From contig CM030333.1 in NCBI GenBank assembly GCA_017654855.1, positions 4,216,001 to 4,280,000 on the forward strand: a DNA stretch of 64,000 bases. Reading direction: 5' to 3'. The translations under genes were made by a program, and so were the position numbers. Within the stretch, counting starts at the first letter, position 1. The number at the start of each line of letters is the position of its first letter. Origin of the DNA: Podospora anserina (Eukaryota). The notes beneath the pieces were generated by a model. It ran no database searches and was not told the origin of the DNA. It saw only the letters and a list, made by a program, of their open reading frames with translations. Positions 29,954-41,516 of the stretch are shown piece by piece.

Positions 29954-32900
29954 TCACCACGGTGAATACCAGTCTCTTGCCTTTCTGACCCTGGGACTCT
30001 CCCAAAAGTCGTTGGTTGGGGAGGGCCAGCGTTGGCGGCGGATTGTTTCCATGTTTGGGAGGAGGGTGCCGTGTGGTGGGTGTTGGAGTTGGATCCTGGG
30101 TTGCTGTTGACCTTGGGTGGTGGTCTGCTGCTTGCTGGATTGTTGACTCGGGAATGTGGAAGGCTGACCCTGAGTGGTAGTAGTTGTTGACTGCTGCCTC
30201 TGCAGCTCAACGTCTCCCCCCAACTCCCTCTCCCCATCCCACTCATGACGCCACCCCTCCTCCAACCTCATCAACTTGCCCACCAACCTCTCATGCTCCT
30301 CCGTCGCCCCATCCTCCCCACACAACTCTCTTCTCAACCGCTCCATCCGGCCATGTATCATGGACTTCTCCAGCTCCTCCCACTCCGCCTGCTGCTCGTC
30401 CCGTGGCGGCTGCTCCCTCCCCTGCCTCTCCGCCTCCAACCTCCCCAACTCAGCTCTCAACCGACAATGCTCCCCCAACGCGCCCCCCGTCCAGTCCCGC
30501 CATAGATCCGGTTTGATCTCGTCCAACCTACTTTTTATCCTCTCCCTCTCTCTTGTATACTCCTCTTCTTTCCGCTGCTCCTCGGCCCAGTCAGGATGGA
30601 CAGGCACCCGCTGCAAACACCACGACTGCCCCGGCCCAGAACGGTACATATCAAGGTTATTGACGTAATGCTCCCAGTCGACACCCCCGTCGGGATCGTT
30701 GACGTCGGCTTCGGTCGCCGAGTCGTATTGGATGTCTGCGAGAGCCATCAGATCTTCGTCTTCGACTTGTGCGATGGATTGCTCTGCTTCGGGGACGGAC
30801 ATGGATTCTAGAGGTTGGAGGTAGGGGGGTAGTGGGGGAGGGTGTGAGTCGAGCGTTGTGAGGTCCGAGTCGGAGGGGGAGGGGGGTTGGATAGGGAACG
30901 GGGGTGAGAGGTGGAAGTCGGGGGAGGGGGGAGGGGGGGCGGATGGGTCAAGTGGTGCTATTCCGGGGAAGTGGAGTTGGGGGGGTTGTTCGGGTTGGGG
31001 CTGGGGGGGAGGGGATGGCGAGGGGGGTGGTTCTGAGGAGGATGAGGATGAGGGGGGAGGCGGGGAGGGGGTGCCGAATGAGTCCGAGTCTGAGGGTGGG
31101 GGTGGTGGTGTCATGTATTGGCCTGACATGAAGGTACTAATTTCTTCGGGGGGGATGGGGATGGTCTCGAGTTCGGAGTCGTTGAAGTCGAGGTCGGAGG
31201 AGGAGTTGGCGTCTGGGGGGGAGTGTTGGTGGAGGGTGATGTTGGAGGGATCCCAGAGGTGCTGTTCGGGGGGGAGGTGAGTGGTCGCTTGACTGATGGC
31301 GTGGGCGCCGTGAGAGGGGGATAGGTTTTGTGAGGAAGGGAGCTCAGGGCCGAATAGAATGGGGTACTGCTCTGATAGGGGAAGGGCATTGAATGAGGCT
31401 GGGTTTGGGGGGGCAGAGTTGGGGGGTGAGGACCAGATGGTGTCGAGGTGGTTGTCGTGGTTGATGACGTCGGCTAGGGCTGGGGGAGGGGGGGACTGAA
31501 GAGGAGGAGGAGGAGGAGGAGGAGGAGGAGGTGGTGGTGGTGCTGGACGGAGAACAACAGTGATTTGGGGGCTGTCGATTTCCATTTTGTCATCCTCGAA
31601 CTCCTCCCAGCCTTCGTCGTCAAACTCTTCCGACTCAGCGTCGTAGCCTTCGTCTTCGCCCGTGTTATGGTCTGGGTCAATGATTTCCATCTCCACGTCC
31701 ATATCCTTATCCACGCTCTCGGCCATATCCTGGTCCATGTTAGTGTCCCTATCATCGTCTATGTTCCCAGGCGCAGCCTCAACGACCTGATCGTTCACAA
31801 CCCCAACATCCTCCAGCCTGGGCAGCTTCGTGGCCCTAGGCGGAGACTCCGACTCATCACTAGACACCACCGTAGCCGCCGCCATAGCAGCCTTCATCCT
31901 GAACAGAACCTGCCGGTGAATCTCAGCCGTCTCCTCCTTCCAGTCCACCTTCGGATCCGGCACCTTGATCTTAAACTTCTTCCCCTTAAACCCCATAGCC
32001 GTAATGTTATACACATCCTCCAACTTCCTCCTCGCCAACCTATACATATCCATCCCCTTGTTCACCCTCTCCTTCCTCGCCATCTCCCTCTCTTCTTCCT
32101 TGATCATCTCCTCCCTCTCCTCGTCCGTCAACTCCTTCCACCTCACCTTCCTCGCATGCTTGGGCTGCCACATCCCCCTCTCAAAGGGCACATTCCCGCA
32201 CTCCCCGTTGACAATCTCATTCTCGTGCAACCCCGCCACTCGTTCCAGCCCAGTCTTTTCCTCCTCGTCCTCATCACTCATGTACATCTCCTCCAAACTC
32301 GGCACCAGATTATCCCCAGTCTCGTAGTCGACATGTCCATACGTCATCATCCCAAACAAACACTCCCACCCGCACATCGCCCCCAGCCCCCTCCTCCCCC
32401 CCTCCATAACAACCAGCTCCTCCGGCCTCATGAGAATCTCGGTCCCCCCCCTCTCCCACCCCTCAAACTGCCCGACCCCCATGTCATAAATCTGCACCCC
32501 CATCACCGGCTCCCCACTCCATATCTCCCTATTCTTCGGCGGCACGTCATACCTCAGCTTCAGCTGATGTATCCCCGCCTCGGTGGTGTACCCCTTCCTC
32601 CTCAAAAACTTCCACAGCGGACTCAGCCCCCTCTGCCCCATAAACAACCTCGCCAGAACAGTCGACCCCGGCCCAAAGACGGGATCGTTGAACAAGAGGA
32701 CCAACTTTACAAAAAACAGCTGGAAGCGGTACAGATCATCGTCGGTGAGGAAGCTCTCGTTGCAAAAGAGGGTGAGTCTCATCCTGTTGGTAGGGCACTC
32801 TAACACCAGCCAGATCTTTTGGAGGGTGGCGTCCGTTTCCGGGAGCGTGCGATGACCGTGTCTGGCGAGGACGGCGAGCATGTCACGCACGCGGGCCTCC

Positions 32901-33853
32901 CTCTGCACCACGTGCTGCAGCCAGAGAAGGCCTGGTACAAGACGGGTTTTGCTCCCGTCGCAATTGACGTGCATGTCGTCTTCCCCCAGACAGGCCTGGC
33001 CCGGTCGGGGGAGGGAGATTTCGTGGTCGGAGCGGGTGCACTTTCGGCCGAGGGGGTCGGGGATGAACCAGTGGGCGTAGACGGGGGACGAGTAGATCCT
33101 CGAGGCCACGGGGGCCATGTGCCGGGACCAGGCAAAGACAAACTTGCGCATGTTGTGGTTGAGGGTGTTGTGGAAGCCGCGGTGGAGGGCGTGGAGGTTG
33201 ACGAGGTCTTTGGGGCGGAGGTGCTTGCAGACTTCGATGAGGAGCTCGGGGGTCGTGCAGAGGGTTGACAGCAGGTCGATGGTCGGTTTGGGACGTTTGG
33301 GGGCCCGTTGTGCCTTTTGCCAGGTTTTGATCGATTGCTTCAGGGAGAGGAAACGTTCCCTCGCGATGGCGCGGTATTCCCTCTGCAGCAAGGGGTTGTT
33401 GTTCTCGAGGCCGTGCTCGATCAGCTGTGACTCCCAGGTGGCTTCAAACTCCTCTTCGTTCTTGCCAAGGACGGCTGCCTCATCTTCGGACTCTTCCTCG
33501 TCAGAGGAGGCGAATTCCTTGGGACGGCCGTGGTAGACGAGCCGGACTCTGTCGGAAAGGTTAGAGACGGTAGGGATGATTCTCCCGTTGGCAACAACCG
33601 AGCGAGCCTCCTCCTCCCAGCGGGTCATGTGGAGGACGATGGAAGGGACATCGGGCCGGATACCAAGGGCCTCGATCTCTTCCTCTGTTCTCTCTTCGCG
33701 AGCGACAACGTTGTCGAAATAGATCCGCTGGGCCTCATTTTGCGGGTTGGCGATGAGGTCGTCCAGATCCCAGTCGTCATCGTCATCGTCAAAGAAATCC
33801 AAATCCTGTATGTCATCAACCCAGTCGTTGTCTTCGAGGTCGATGGCACTCAT
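29954..33853 (-). CDS. Large hypothetical protein (~1300 aa) with an F-box-like motif and acidic/proline-rich regions
   Basis: Single long ORF; first ATG at 33853 (MSAIDLED). LLSTLCTTPELLIEVCKHLRPKDLVNLHALHRGFH resembles an F-box. Confidence 0.8.
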   Translation of the reverse strand: MSAIDLEDNDWVDDIQDLDFFDDDDDDWDLDDLIANPQNEAQRIYFDNVVAREERTEEEIEALGIRPDVPSIVLHMTRWEEEARSVVANGRIIPTVSNLSDRVRLVYHGRPKEFASSDEEESEDEAAVLGKNEEEFEATWESQLIEHGLENNNPLLQREYRAIARERFLSLKQSIKTWQKAQRAPKRPKPTIDLLSTLCTTPELLIEVCKHLRPKDLVNLHALHRGFHNTLNHNMRKFVFAWSRHMAPVASRIYSSPVYAHWFIPDPLGRKCTRSDHEISLPRPGQACLGEDDMHVNCDGSKTRLVPGLLWLQHVVQREARVRDMLAVLARHGHRTLPETDATLQKIWLVLECPTNRMRLTLFCNESFLTDDDLYRFQLFFVKLVLLFNDPVFGPGSTVLARLFMGQRGLSPLWKFLRRKGYTTEAGIHQLKLRYDVPPKNREIWSGEPVMGVQIYDMGVGQFEGWERGGTEILMRPEELVVMEGGRRGLGAMCGWECLFGMMTYGHVDYETGDNLVPSLEEMYMSDEDEEEKTGLERVAGLHENEIVNGECGNVPFERGMWQPKHARKVRWKELTDEEREEMIKEEEREMARKERVNKGMDMYRLARRKLEDVYNITAMGFKGKKFKIKVPDPKVDWKEETAEIHRQVLFRMKAAMAAATVVSSDESESPPRATKLPRLEDVGVVNDQVVEAAPGNIDDDRDTNMDQDMAESVDKDMDVEMEIIDPDHNTGEDEGYDAESEEFDDEGWEEFEDDKMEIDSPQITVVLRPAPPPPPPPPPPPPPLQSPPPPALADVINHDNHLDTIWSSPPNSAPPNPASFNALPLSEQYPILFGPELPSSQNLSPSHGAHAISQATTHLPPEQHLWDPSNITLHQHSPPDANSSSDLDFNDSELETIPIPPEEISTFMSGQYMTPPPPPSDSDSFGTPSPPPPSSSSSSEPPPSPSPPPQPQPEQPPQLHFPGIAPLDPSAPPPPSPDFHLSPPFPIQPPSPSDSDLTTLDSHPPPLPPYLQPLESMSVPEAEQSIAQVEDEDLMALADIQYDSATEADVNDPDGGVDWEHYVNNLDMYRSGPGQSWCLQRVPVHPDWAEEQRKEEEYTRERERIKSRLDEIKPDLWRDWTGGALGEHCRLRAELGRLEAERQGREQPPRDEQQAEWEELEKSMIHGRMERLRRELCGEDGATEEHERLVGKLMRLEEGWRHEWDGERELGGDVELQRQQSTTTTTQGQPSTFPSQQSSKQQTTTQGQQQPRIQLQHPPHGTLLPNMETIRRQRWPSPTNDFWESPRVRKARDWYSPW

Positions 33854-34796
33854 GGCGAGGTGGAGGAGGGACAGTCGTCTTGTCTGTGGTCTTTGGTCGT
33901 GGTAGGCGAACTTTTGGAATGCCTTCGGGGTCTTTGTCAAAGCAGTTGTAACAGTGAGAAAATGTGAATGGAGACAAGGTCATTAATTGCAGAAAAGACG
34001 AGATGATTTGTAGTTTTTTAACTGAATATTTCTGTGGGCTGGCGGCGGTGTGGTCGACATGCATGTCTATTCACAGCTATTGTCAATGGTCAACAATAGG
34101 AGCTCTCAAGAACAATAGGAGCAGCTTATGCGTCACGAGCCCACCCACCACCAGGCACCCGGCTCATAGCCAACCAACTTCCAGCTCTTATCTCTCTCTA
34201 CAATAAGAGTTCAGCTCTTGTCTAAAGAGACCTATTCAACCCGATAAAACAGAAGTCACAAGTAATTACACCGCAAAGAAGAAACCTGGAAAAAAACAAT
34301 AGGGCCCAGAAAGTACATTCTAGGAAAACACTACTACTAGCTTGCCGTCTGCGGCGTGAACACATACAAAAGAAACAGGAAACATGCCATAGCCTCCGAC
34401 TCCTTTTCTACAACCAAGAAGAGGAAGAGGAAGAGGAATAGTACGAGGTTGGACGAAAATGCCACCGTGAATAACCATGCTGCTGTCGCTCACACTTCAA
34501 AAAGTTTTACCACCCCGAGTCTGTCGCTTGCCCTCGCCGGATTGCTGCGCGTTCCTGACCAGCTCCAGATACTCATCGTACACAGCCTTGGGCCGGGGAC
34601 GGTCGCTGTCCTCGCTGCTGCCTTGAGACGATGTGTCGTCGCGAATCTCCAAGTCCGCCATGGGCAATTGCTGAGATACACTCTGGTTGTTCCTCTTGTG
34701 CCTGAGGACAGTGCTCTGGTCGCTTTCCTCCTGCTTCACCTTCACGCCGCCGGGCTCGCCGTGTTTTCTCTTGATGCCTTTCTTGAGCCCTCCTTC

Positions 34797-36258
34797 CTAG
34801 GGGATAGATGTTCCGTCGGCGCTCCCCATTTCGTTCATCTCCATCTCCTGGTTCGGCGGCGAGATGATGCTCTTGGTCGGCTGCCAGATCTGCAGCAAGT
34901 TGTCCTCGGCCGCGCTGCAGACGAGCCAGGGGATGTTTTTGTTCCAGCTAAAGTCGGCCAGATGGTTAGTGTGGCCGCCGTGCATGAACAGAAGCTCCGG
35001 CGGTCCATCCTCAGCCTCCTCGGGTGTTTGCTCGTCACCAATAAGGCTGATATCCCAGAGGATAATCCGGCGGTCGTAGCCTCCACTGCCGAGGATGGCG
35101 TGGTCGATTGGGTTCCAGGCCAGAGAGGTAACCGCGTCGTTGTGGCCCTCGAGCGTGTGGATCTTGCCGGCCTTGAGGTTTCGGAGATCCCAGATACCAA
35201 TTGTCTTGTCAGCCGAGGCGGTGGCAACGAGGTAGTTGACCTTGGGGTTCCAGGCGATGGCATTGATGGCATCGCTGTGGCCATCGCGGGCAACGGCAGC
35301 CGCCTTGGTGCTGTCAGCGGTGCGGATGTCAATGACTTGCATCGTCACATCGTCTGATACGGTGCCGATCCAGGACGGGGTGATTGGGTTGTACTGGACA
35401 TCGTTGACGACATGGCTGTGGTGGGTGTACTTGCGCCAAGGCCTCACCTTCTTGTCAGTGCCGCTGTACGAGTTCAAATCCCAAACCATGACGGTATTGT
35501 CTTCGCTACCGGTCGCCAACCAGCCAGGCTTGTCTGGGCTCCAGTCCAGACCGAAACCTTCCTGCGTGTGACCAATGCACTCGAGCTGGGGATTGGGGGT
35601 TCCCGTTGGCTGCAAGCTGTGCTTGGTCCGATCGAAAATGAGCACCCTCCCGTCGACAGCGAGCGTGGCGATGATGTCGGGATTTTGAGGTTGGTATCGC
35701 GCCTTGTTGACTTCGCCCGGGTGATCGATCTTTTGCGTAATCGTCATCTTGATCACATGCGGCTCGCCAGATCCGCCCAAGTTTCCATGTCCGCCAATCT
35801 CGCCGCGGTCCTCATCGTAGTCGCGAGCGCTAGGCTTGACCGGCTTTGGCACCTCGACGTCGGCGATCTGAAGGTAGTTTGGCTTGCCCTCTGCAGTATG
35901 TGTTCCCAGAAGCAGGCGATGGGTCGTGTAATTCTTGTCTGGAACGTCCTTAACGTCGGGGAACCACTGGGTGGTCAGTGTCGGCCACTCCAACGCTGTG
36001 CTGAGGATCATGCTGTAGAGGAATGGACTGTTCTTCTTCCAGACCTTGTACTCTGCCGCAAAAGTTAGCCGCTGCCAAGTCTCGCGAGCTCAACCAGGAG
36101 AACACCTACCCTCGTTGATGAGTTTTTGCTGCATTTTCTCGTCCTCGTCCTCTTCCTCCATATTGACTGCAAAGGTTGTTAGTGTCTCTCGCGGCGGAGT
36201 TGGTGGGCATATATAGCGACATACCGTCCACGTCGTTGACAACCTCGGTGGGAGCCAT
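34797..36258 (-). CDS. HAT2: Histone-binding WD40 protein, HAT-B subunit 2 / RbAp48-MSI1 family
   Basis: [68 protein letters not shown]. Introns 36224-36167 and 36109-36053. Confidence 0.92.
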
Positions 36259-37067: not shown

Positions 37068-40000
37068 ATGGGGTGAGTATTCCATCCGCATATCTCTCGG
37101 CCTCAGCATGCGACTGACAGACATGATCCAGTGTTCCCAAGTTTTTCAGATGGCTCTCTGAGCGTTACCCGGCGATATCGCAACTCATTGCCGAGAATCG
37201 AATTCCCGAGTTCGACTGCCTCTACGTGCGCCAGCCTTCTCGAGTCGGGAGACTATACCCATGTTGTGCCAGTCGCTAATATGTTGGTGATTTTCAGTTG
37301 GATATGAATGGTATCATTCATAATTGTACCCACAAGGACTCGGATGATGTTCAGCAGGCCCGTATTAGCGAAGAACAAATGTTCATCGCTATATTCAACT
37401 ATATAGAACATCTCTTCGGTAAGATCAAACCGAAGACGCTGTTCTTCATGGCCATCGATGGTGTCGCCCCGCGCGCCAAAATGAACCAACAGCGTGCTCG
37501 TCGCTTCAGAACTGCTTTGGACGCTGAGAGGGCCCGTGATAAGGCCATTCAGGAGGGCAAAGAGTTGCCCAAGGAGCCACCGTTCGACTCCAATTGCATC
37601 ACGCCAGGTATGTTGCTGCCACCAGACGTCTGGTTTTCGGTCTGCTGACCTTGACACAGGAACTGAGTTCATGGCCAAGCTTACCCAGCAGCTCAAGTAC
37701 TTCATCAACAAGAAGGTGTCTGAAGACAAGGACTGGCAGGGTCCCGAGATTGTCCTGTCAGGGCACGAGGTCCCTGGTGAGGGTGAGCACAAGATCATGG
37801 AGTACATCCGCAACGCACGCGCGCAACCGGACTACAACCCCAACGTCCGCCACTGCTTGTACGGCCTCGATGCCGATCTCATCATGTTGGGTCTCCTGAG
37901 CCATGACCCACACTTCTGCCTCCTCCGAGAAGAGGTTCAGTTTGGCCGCGTCAAGGACCAGCACAAGGTTAAGGAGTTGGAGCATCAAAACTTTTACCTG
38001 ATGCATCTCTGCATAGTTCGAGAGTACTTGGAGCTGGAGTTCCAAGAGCTCAAAGTACCGGGCGCAATCCCCATGCCGTTCGATATGGAAAAGGTCATTG
38101 ATGACTTCATCTTGATGGCCTTCTTTGTGGGCAACGATTTCTTGCCCAATCTTCCTCGCTTTCACATCAACGAGGGTGCGTTGGCCACCATGTTCAAGAT
38201 TTACAAGGAGGTACTTCGAAAGTGTGATGGATACATCAATGAAAATGGCAGAGTGAATCTCAAGAGGCTAGCCATTCTCTTGGAGGAGCTTGGGAGAGAA
38301 GAGTACCGGTTCTTTGAGCATGAAAACGAAGATGCCGGCTGGCTGCGGGGCAAGAAGATGCTTGAACATGACGAGGCCGAGATTGCCAGGGCTCGTGTCA
38401 AGGGCAAGCTGATCATCAGCTCAGATCAAAAGACGCTGTGGAAGACAAAGATTCGAAAGTTTCTGACCAACCGGAATTCGCAAACTCTTGATCTCGGCAC
38501 CGGCCTAAATGCGGCCGACCGCAAGTTCGTCCAGGATCTGGCTGATGCTGCGCACATTGAGTGGGCTACCAAGGAGGACGACGATGGACGTCGTCACCTT
38601 ATCCTGACCTTCCCTGTGAGAGACGACGAAGACGAGGAGGACGAGGAAGCGCAGTCGGCATCTCTTCGCATTGTGAAGAAGTACGACAGTGCCCAAGTTC
38701 TCGACCTGACAGGTGCCGATGCCCAGTCCGCCATGGAGGCCAAGTACAAGCAAAAGTTCCAAGAGTGGAAGGACGGCTACTACAAGGACAAGTTCCCCGA
38801 GTGGGCCGAGGGGAAGCACGAAGATGAGTTGCGCAAGCTCGCAGAAAACTACGTTCAAGGTCTTCAGTGGGTGCTCTTCTACTACTATCGTGGAATTGCG
38901 TCGTGGCCGTGGTTCTACCGCTATCACTACTCCCCTCTGGTCTCAGATGTCGTCAAGGGTTTGGGTGCAGACCTCAACTTCACCCTGGGCCAGCCGTTCA
39001 GGCCGAACGAACAGCTCATGGGTGTCTTGCCCGACCGCAGTAAAAGCATCGTGCCTACCGTATACTGGCCCCTCATGACGGACAAGGACTCGCCCATCAT
39101 CGATTTCTATCCCCGGGATTTCGAGCTCGACATGAACGGAAAGAAGATGGACTGGGAGGCCGTCGTCAAGATCCCCTTCATTGACGAAAAGCGCCTCCTC
39201 GACGCCATGGCTCCCAAAAACGATCTTCTTTCCGACGAGGAGAAGGCACGCAACGACTTCGGTGTGGCCCTCAAGTTTACGTATTCTCCAGATGTCGATT
39301 TTGAGTATGCCTCATCCTTGGTGGATGTTTTCCCGCACATCCCTCACTGTCACTGTGTCGAAAACATCTTTGATCTTCCTCCGGTCGAAGGTCTTGAGTA
39401 CCGCGCCGGCCTCACCGATGGCGCTCTGTTGAATGCCGAGGCTTTGGCTGGATTCCCATCTCTCGCCACCCTGCCTTATACGGCTAGCCTTGGCTTCCAT
39501 GGAGTTAATGTGTTCAAGCAAGACAGCCGCAACGAAAGCATGGTGGTGAACCTCATCGGCACCGAGATGAGAACCAAGGTCGAGAGTGCCAAGGTCAAGC
39601 TTGGACAGCGCTGCTTTGTTGGTTATCCTTTCCTCCAGGAGGCCAAGATTGTTGGGGTATCTGATGAACTCTTCGACTATGTCCTCGACGGAAACGGTCA
39701 GGTGGCCACCCTTCACCATGGCCATCGTGAAATCGAAGAGTTTGGCAAGAAGGCCAACAAGATTGAGAACTTTTACAGCAAGCGTATGGGTATCTTGATT
39801 GGCCCTGTCGAGTCCCTGGTCAGGGTCCAAATGTTGAAGGGTCTGATCAAGACCGACGAGGGCGCGACAATCAAGGAGTACGGCGACATCCCGGGCATGG
39901 AGACGGACTATGCTTCTCAGATCATTGTCGACGAGGTTGCCAACGAGGACGAGCGCTTTATCGAAAAGGCCGCCTTGCCGCTTGAGGAAGAGTTCCCCGT

Positions 40001-41297
40001 CAAATCGATAGGTTTCTTCTTGGGCGACTTCAACTATGGTCAGCCATTGGAAGTATCTGGCTACACCAACGGAAAGCTTCAGGTCTGGCTTGCCACCCTT
40101 GAAAGCCGGGAGCCTGACTTTGCGAAGCGCATCATTTACGAGTCGGAGCGGGGCAACTCTTACATGCCATCCTACATGGTCGCCAAGCAGCTCGACTTGC
40201 ACCCCTTGGCGCTCAGCAAGATCACCTCATCTTACTTTGTCAAGACGGTTGGTGATCTTCGCGTGAACTTGGGTCTCAACCTCAAATTTGAGGGTAAGAA
40301 GCAGAAGGTGCTCGGGTACTCTCGCAAGTCTCAGACCGGTTGGGAGTTCAGTAGTGCTGCCGTGCACCTGATTGTTCAGTACATGACCAACTTCCCCGAC
40401 TTTTTCGCCGGTGTCAAGAGGAACCCTTCGGGCGCCGAGTTGAAGGAAACCGATCTCTGGAGTGACCCTAATCTGGCCACAGCCCGGGTCAAGGAAATCG
40501 GTGCCTGGCTCAAGACGCTCAAGACCAACTCGATGGAGCGCGTCCCTCTTGATGCCGAGCAGCTGGACTCTGAGGTCGTCATGAGGATTGCTGCGGAGGC
40601 TGACAGTCTCAAGCTCAGCGCTATTCCTACTGTTCCCAAGAAGATGAATGGCGTGCCCAGGAATGCGCTTTTGAGGCCCGACGATGCCGAACATCGCCTG
40701 GGCAACCAGCACTTCGCCTTGGGAGACCGCGTGGTGTACGTTGCCCGCACCGGCAAGGTCCCCATCGCCTTCCGCGGCACTGTGGTTGGTATCAGCCGCA
40801 CCCCCACGGCCAAGTTGTTGGATGTCGTCTTTGACGTCACGTTCATGAGCGGCACTACTCTCGGTGGCCGCTGTCCGCCGTTCCGCGGGCAGACTGTGCC
40901 GTCTACTACCCTTCTCAACCTTACCGGACGGCAGGTTGTTGCCGGTTCCAAGAACCAGCTCGCTCGCCAGCCCGTCACACCATCAGTTACCACCTTGACT
41001 ACTCATGGCGGGTATCACATGCACCAGGGCAAGCGTCTGCAAGATGCCGGTGCTCCTTCTCAAGCTGCTTGGGGACGGGGTGGACGGGGTGGTCGCGGCG
41101 GTGGCAGAGGTGGGTACGGTGGACCCAGCCAGGACGGCAGCAATGGTTCTGCTTCTGCTCCGCCGATGTATGGGGCTGTTCCGCCCCCTTCCAGCCTTGA
41201 TGCTCCTAGGGGAGGAAGAGCGCGCGGACGTGGTCGCGGCAATGGTGGTCAGAGGGGAGGGCAACAGCACAACAACCTTGCCTTCCGCCCTGCGCCT

Positions 41298-41328
<31 letters not shown>

Positions 41329-41516
41329 TTGATGGTCAGAATGGAGAAAATTCACGTGGAGGCCGTGGCGGGAGAGGTGGCTTTAGAGGAACGCCTTATG
41401 CTGGCCGGGGCAGAGGTGGTCCTCGTGGTGGCGCTAGAGGTGGCCAGGGTCAGGGTCAGGGTCAGCAGCAGCAGCAGCAGCAACAAAGCGTGGCGATTCC
41501 TCCTTCCGCGAGCTAG
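37068..41516 (+). CDS. XRN1: 5'-3' exoribonuclease 1
   Basis: MGVPKFFRWLSERYP, LYLDMNGIIH, AIDGVAPRAKMNQQRARRFR, PGEGEHKIMEYIR, YGLDADLIMLGL, GNDFLP. Introns 37073-37131, 37226-37297 and 37608-37659; long XRN1-type C-terminus with an RGG/polyQ tail. Confidence 0.96.

Follow-up and report, generated by a model that had tools for sequence, protein, structure and literature searches.

A conserved open frame behind the UAG stop of the histone chaperone gene HAT2 as a candidate A-to-I stop-loss isoform in Podospora anserina

The HAT2 locus and its transcript

The window, a 64,000-nucleotide stretch of the Podospora anserina genome, carries on its minus strand a gene that is, by its CAF1C_H4-bd domain and its propeller, a HAT2/p55/RBBP4-type histone chaperone (Table 1). 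The spliced coding sequence of 1347 nt translates into 448 aa identical to P. anserina PODANS_2_11390 (P0003), with PF12265 scoring 97 bits in a Pfam search (cut-off 22.7) and with RBBP4, Mis16 and p55 as matches in a PDB search (E 1e-126 against the solved Mis16 and RBBP4 structures). In a structure model the WD40 propeller is already complete upstream of the UAG. The gene, as Pa_2_11390, has been listed as a PRC2-associated subunit (PMC6709928). A search of the species' own genome turned up no further close copy, the next match being 31% identical. Two neighbors flank the gene: XRN1, divergently oriented, is syntenic across Pezizomycotina loci, and a downstream 1299-aa ORF is syntenic in many loci.

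All ten members of the 90% identity cluster (Podospora species, Triangularia, Cercophora samala, Apiosordaria and two Logan proteins; eight of the ten are named, from several species) terminate at the same residue as Podospora HAT2, and the last 28 residues before the stop are invariant among them. The Podospora/Triangularia HAT2 branch is long in our tree (0.33, compared with a median tip of 0.058), despite these invariant residues. Most of the 120 homologs listed end 20–29 residues past the last WD40 Trp.

RNA evidence came from 4 of the 24 listed runs, picked by size and differing study (17 of the 24 are guessed to be RNA). Each run yielded a single spliced contig that skips both introns and spans the region behind the stop unbroken, past position 34500 to an end between 34036 and 34240. 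All four contigs cross the stop, read TAG with no other letter and show no 3′ joint, which excludes an assembly error at the TAG and places the region behind it within the transcript.

Table 1. Features of the HAT2 locus (positions are those of the window).
Feature	Positions	Strand	Basis or remark
1299-aa ORF downstream of HAT2	29954..33853	-	no Pfam match
Remaining 3′ UTR	34036..34496	-	contig ends 34036–34240; contigs cannot fix true ends
Second in-frame stop, TGA	34497..34499	-	sequence read
Extension, 99 in-frame codons (cryptic C-terminal tail)	34500..34796	-	predicted disordered except for one helix; no Pfam match
Basic end motif KRQTRGG	34509..34529	-	matches RRVTRGG (L018), RKTRSR (Sordariaceae), RRLRSA (L028)
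Tyr-led helix, conserved, tail residues 70–85, KAVYDEYLELVRNAQQ	34542..34589	-	pLDDT about 50, low confidence
Ser/Asp/Glu-rich patch, tail residues 53–65, ahead of conserved block	34602..34640	-	tail alignment
psi-K-x-E (VKQE) in Podospora tail	34728..34739	-	sequence read
Basic cluster KKGIKRKH, tail residues 5–12	34761..34784	-	sequence read
Canonical UAG stop of HAT2	34797..34799	-	candidate edited A at 34798 (T on + strand; CDS position 1346)
HAT2 exon 3, coding part: CAF1C_H4-bd and complete WD40 propeller, end ...GSADGTSIP	34800..36052	-	Pfam, PDB matches, model
Intron 2, 57 nt, GT-AG	36053..36109	-	skipped in 4/4 contigs
HAT2 coding exon 2	36110..36166	-	spliced contigs
Intron 1, 58 nt, GT-AG	36167..36224	-	skipped in 4/4 contigs
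HAT2 coding exon 1 (p55/RBBP4-like, PODANS_2_11390)	36225..36258	-	ATG at 36258
XRN1, divergent from HAT2	37485..41516	+	Pfam

An open reading frame behind the stop codon

A sequence-only reading of the window had reported that the frame stays open for 99 codons behind the HAT2 stop, that codon use there is coding-like, and that no donor could splice the stop out; all three observations hold, including the translation given. The probability of 99 open codons is 0.027 from the local composition, and in a 464-kb control from the same genome, 4 of the 74 long ORFs with no nearby donor, HAT2 included, have at least 99 open codons behind their stop (26 of the 74 end in TAG). With such figures, extension length by itself is weak and only suggestive. 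The log-likelihood ratio for coding-like codon use is 0.25 in the HAT2 frame, compared with −0.05 and −0.08 in the two other frames and a coding mean of 0.11, and it was reached by none of 73 control 3′ stretches, the same controls having trained the non-coding model. The closest GT upstream of the stop lies at 34922, 123 nt away and in a non-consensus context; no GC-type consensus donor was seen upstream, and none of the four spliced contigs has a joint near the stop.

The tail has no Pfam match, and a homolog search with the region returned only P0002, matched through residues before the stop. A HMMER search of the tail over representatives gave two matches, a Logan ORF and the C-to-T artifact P0132 discussed below. 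AlphaFold modeling of HAT2 with its tail gave pLDDT below 50 at residues 400–491 and 497–517, with one helix, and the tail of P0021, a long Sordariaceae model, is similarly disordered with one helix. Neither of two AlphaFold models docked the tail confidently on the propeller, which is no evidence either way because the first model was built without the N-terminal helix and both relied on shallow alignments. Two other ideas were discarded: mimicry of the H4 helix by the basic start, suggested by locus L014, is absent from the remaining tails, and an antisense frame of 338 codons is not conserved, being open only in the window among 10 loci.

Stop identity and tail length in relatives

Among 80 HAT2 loci recovered by a metagenome scan, 69 extend as far as the stop codon; the other 11 were left out as their contigs end before it. 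Loci were classed by best named match, blind to the stop codon, with L012 and L021 being near ties between Sordariales and other Sordariomycetes. Orthology was supported in many loci by the divergent XRN1 neighbor and the common downstream ORF. The HAT2 stop is TAG in all 31 Sordariomycete-like loci, as opposed to 2 of 38 others, and after removal of near-duplicates in 21/21 and 2/23, respectively. Fisher's exact test gave p = 1e-10 for the TAG contrast, a value that overstates it because the loci are related to each other. TAG is the one stop codon that a single A-to-I change turns into a sense codon.

Tails of at least 79 aa were found in 6 of 13 distinct Sordariales-like loci, compared with 0 of 8 other Sordariomycete loci and 1 of 23 outgroup loci. 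The 13 Sordariales-like tails fall into six of 79 to >126 aa, four of 21–57 aa and three of 1–3 aa, and the eight other Sordariomycete loci have tails of 2–27 aa; the tail of the Fusarium-like locus is 12 aa long. Given the three minimal tails within Sordariales and the short Fusarium-like one, a long tail is dispensable or lineage-bound.

Conservation of frame, residues and motif in the tail

In pairs of Chaetomiaceae-like loci, 11 of 12 indels within the tail are multiples of three, in contrast to 4 of 18 behind the second stop; the five pairs are not independent, four of them containing L014. Codon-level conservation gave a mixed outcome: the TAG itself is fixed among the Sordariomycete-like loci, but dN/dS is weak, with omega of the tail in frame at 0.21–0.75 for individual Chaetomiaceae-like pairs and a pooled value of 0.67 (p = 0.08, two independent pairs) that lies close to the 0.72 obtained in the +1 frame. 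Taken as sequence comparisons, these data indicate that the tail's reading frame is clearly maintained, and point to a loose residue-level constraint on the tail in Sordariales.

Conservation is found toward the far end of the tail, a region that the sequence-only reading had not singled out. Podospora and Sordariaceae tails have in common a block that combines a patch of Ser and acidic residues with a Tyr-led helix and, at its end, the basic [RK][RK]x[TL]R; it is carried by Podospora, the long Neurospora and Sordaria gene models and three metagenome loci. An MAFFT alignment of all 18 tails misaligned this motif, and a 6-row alignment was used instead. Shuffle tests of the Podospora tail gave p = 0.0005 against L018, 0.002 against P0021, 0.016 against L009 and 0.04 against L028. 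In a search with a profile of four non-Podospora tails, whose rows were picked by eye, the Podospora tail ranked top of 6957 segments of its own genome (E = 1e-5, the next at 1.1). In a tree from a short alignment, with L031 left out, tails bearing the block occur on both main Sordariales branches. Podospora and Chaetomiaceae tails showed no significant match (shuffle p 0.28–0.89) and negative bits in the profile.

The two motifs that had been proposed near the start of the tail are both present and fare less well. The SUMO-like VKQE is weak, a psi-K-x-E being found in 3 of the 16 tails examined, and the same can be said of the NLS-like KKGIKRKH, as a basic start is frequent in orthologous tails and conserved in composition, not in sequence. 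HAT2/p55 is a nuclear chromatin protein anyway, and the idea that the longer isoform would have an altered localization for this reason has little support.

Several other tails are worth recording. The Chaetomiaceae-like tails (L014, L017, L019, L022, L023 and L025–L027) share a motif of their own, LSYVTTRRAW, which scores show to have no relation to the block of Podospora, and the L025 tail carries a tandem repeat. The 27-aa tail of the Phialemonium-like locus L044 contains VKVKTE and KRLRSG, echoing the Podospora VKVKQE and basic end with a score that is not significant. Among HAT2 gene models, P0164 from Coniochaeta pulveracea (525 aa) is longer, with a resemblance to the Podospora tail that falls short of significance (p = 0.10), and P0050 from Monosporascus (478 aa) is another with a longer tail.

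Evidence on A-to-I editing

The context of the putative edit site is CCCU[A]GGAA, with U at −1, G at +1 and A at +3, and so agrees with the published preference for U at −1 and purines at +1 and +3 (PMC11156358). A34798 is unpaired in all folds: the 61-nt fold alone places it in a hairpin loop (z +1.36, not significant), and it is exterior in the 101-nt fold and in a bulge in the 150-nt fold. No A-to-G change at 34798 was seen in the four contig sets, which are of unlabeled stage and in a form that drops minor alleles. We found no direct report of editing in Podospora in the literature; ADAT-class genes were reported in a preprint to be up-regulated in P. anserina perithecia.

Published tables for related species are informative to different degrees. 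In Fusarium graminearum, a gene annotated HAT2 (FG4G05890) is listed as stop-loss edited at 23%, at CDS position 1319, the middle base of codon 440 (PMC13123824, Dataset S1); its orthology to Podospora HAT2 is by name and CDS position, not by sequence. The mRNA of Neurospora crassa HAT2 (NCU06679) has three missense edits at 25–55% in the supplement of PMC13431901, a table without stop-codon rows and therefore silent on the HAT2 stop. For Sordaria macrospora SMAC_06531, the protoperithecial data in Table S2 of PMC5381528 hold only a C>A UTR site (3/3 rows listed), and the gene is absent from the 10 supplement files searched of PMC6794485, where the older long gene model would hide peptides of the extension. 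The supplement of PMC10776026 had no match for the gene IDs tried. No description of a conserved Sordariales HAT2 tail, nor of a stop-gated tail anywhere in the HAT2/Mis16/p55/RBBP4-7 family, was found in the literature searched; other supplements, notably that of Liu et al. (2017) on N. crassa, may list the site.

The original proposal stands in part. Its core, an A-to-I stop-loss isoform, has good indirect support in the fixed TAG, the conserved tail and frame and the edited F. graminearum namesake; the Podospora contigs show TAG only, and the proposed function is weak.

Elsewhere in the genome we noted another candidate stop-loss site. An ORF of 808+ codons at L131:6006-6788 on the minus strand (G000:C8, about 2006788) ends in TAG and is followed by 259 in-frame codons that are coding-like (LLR 0.22) and Lys/Pro-rich, with the end ...YGLRSRRPRVIQS. 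Neither the ORF nor its extension has a Pfam match.

Alternative explanations

Gene callers may invent an intron to bypass a restoratively edited stop. One alternative is that the tail is real coding sequence joined to HAT2 by alternative splicing around the stop, an arrangement assumed in the 563–573 aa Neurospora and Sordaria models. Seven of the 15 listed Sordariaceae cluster members are such long models, joining the tail after ...KPKQS, and L028 has a GTGAGT 17 nt upstream of its TAG. However, manual reading of L028 found no in-frame acceptor with a branch site, 15 of 16 tails are without a donor-like word within 90 nt, and the window has neither a usable donor nor a 3′ joint in its contigs. 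The codon of the implied donor is, as judged from proteins, missing in P0148 (QSNH), yet the tail ORF P0149 persists. Because the acceptor differs from one long model to another, and because the S. macrospora entry SMAC_06531, of 564 aa, was later listed as SMAC4_06531, of 446 aa, the intron in the Sordariaceae models is, going by the proteins, probably predictor-made, which suggests that these database entries are work-arounds of an edited stop; we consider splicing quite improbable as the route to the tail. Ribosomal readthrough of a leaky UAG, giving a low level of the long form in all tissues with no editing, would predict the same conservation of frame and motif and is compatible with the TAG contigs. 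Leaky stop contexts favor C at +4 and UGA, whereas the +4 base is G in Podospora and A, G or T in 16 of 16 tails, never C. Readthrough also leaves unexplained why TAG is strict only in the class with editing, and why the F. graminearum namesake is edited, and we give it little credence.

That the tail might be a separate small protein, made from its own ATG or an internal transcript, is suggested by predicted ORFs of 80–126 aa (P0131, P0133–P0135, P0149) and by a Met at Podospora tail residue 46, but the tails of L018, L028, L019, L025, L026 and L027 contain no Met, none is conserved, and the tail frame always matches that of HAT2, which makes this reading very improbable. We find it hardly credible that the TAG arose by a sequencing error, or that a longer gene recently underwent a nonsense (RIP-like) change. 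P0132 does have Q at the stop position, but this Logan protein resembles the end of HAT2 after C-to-T conversion, with TAG decoded as Q; every Gln is retained and Pro, Ala and His are replaced, as expected of a wholesale C-to-T copy, a bisulfite-like artifact. Both the shared terminus of the 90% cluster and the contigs contradict an error. A further possibility is that the open frame goes untranslated, being a relic or having arisen by chance in a GC-rich 3′ UTR, and that any editing is noise. The four comparable ORFs in the control, the loss of tails in several Sordariales, the weak dN/dS and the non-adaptive view of stop-loss editing (PMC13684035) fit such an origin; the frame-keeping indels, the in-frame motif across families and the coding-like codon use instead call for ongoing or recent translation of the tail, and we hold a relic or chance frame to be unlikely.

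A possible sexual-stage isoform and its function

We favor, with a probability of about 0.72, a sexual-stage A-to-I stop-loss isoform of HAT2 in Podospora with a disordered, motif-bearing tail. Ordinarily, termination at the UAG gives the 448-aa WD40 protein. In fruiting bodies, the ADAT-based A-to-I system of Sordariomycetes would edit part of the transcripts at A34798 (partial editing being inferred for Podospora and listed for the same-named F. graminearum gene), and the resulting UIG would be decoded as Trp, producing an isoform of 548 aa that ends in the disordered tail of 99 residues. Comparison among Sordariales shows that loose selection keeps the frame, the basic start and the far-end block with its acidic patch, Tyr-led helix and basic motif.

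What the tail does, given editing, can be stated only tentatively. The far-end block may be a short binding module that alters where, or with what, the HAT-B/CAF-1/PRC2 chaperone acts in sexual tissue, a possibility we favor slightly over a destabilizing tail of the Dbf2 type because a generic degron needs no family-spanning motif. Such a degron-like tail lowering HAT2 dose is almost as probable, and both roles may apply at once; that the tail does little or nothing seems rather unlikely. A more specific version, which we regard as speculative and distinctly unlikely, would make the tail a fruiting-body-only chromatin-tethering module on the p55 subunit of HAT-B, CAF-1 and PRC2, with the Tyr-led helix binding a partner and the terminal [RK][RK]x[TL]R engaging the nucleosome acidic patch by way of an arginine anchor. 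The basic tail end resembles arginine-anchor peptides that bind this patch (PMC9040877), a likeness of motif only. If true, several chromatin complexes would be redirected at meiosis without gene duplication, by a gain-of-function isoform and not a degron.

The adaptiveness of fungal stop-loss editing is disputed, with the case made in PMC13123824 opposed by a 2026 letter arguing that it is generally non-adaptive (PMC13684035), and the tested cases are generic degrons. HAT2 would offer a sharper test case, as a core chromatin chaperone whose tail frame and motif are kept across Sordariales families, although Fusarium has only a short tail and some relatives have lost theirs. P. anserina being a non-pathogenic and tractable model, one-base alleles can separate an effect of dose from a gain of function.

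Comparison with known systems

With its CAF1C_H4-bd domain and WD40 propeller, the Podospora protein resembles the other HAT2/Mis16/p55/RBBP4-7 chaperones, and the arrangement at its stop likely places it among the cases of Sordariomycete stop-loss A-to-I editing. In F. graminearum, FgDBF2 and 402 other genes undergo such editing (Du et al., 2026, PMC13123824), and HAT2, which is not discussed in the main text of that paper, is like this set in having a canonical UAG, with TAG fixed in Sordariomycetes and mixed outside, and an extension that in Podospora is long and predicted to be disordered. In contrast to the Dbf2 tail, a short degron with little conservation (PMC13123824), the HAT2 tail reaches 79–128 aa in many Sordariales and keeps a motif across families.

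A likeness also exists to restorative editing of the PUK1 type (PMC11156358), in that UAG to UGG would open downstream coding sequence. However, the WD40 protein of HAT2 is complete when unedited, and editing would add a tail and restore nothing; HAT2 does not belong to the restorative class, because in outgroups, too, the protein terminates at this point, give or take a short tail, and because the modeled propeller is complete before the stop. A further parallel is white collar 1 of S. macrospora, with a 131-aa stop-loss extension proven by peptides (Blank-Landeshammer et al., 2019, PMC6794485): HAT2 would likewise be a Sordariales regulator with a long C-terminal tail gated by UAG-to-UGG editing. 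Long edited tails are already known from white collar 1, and the conserved HAT2 tail of Sordariales would be a further example.
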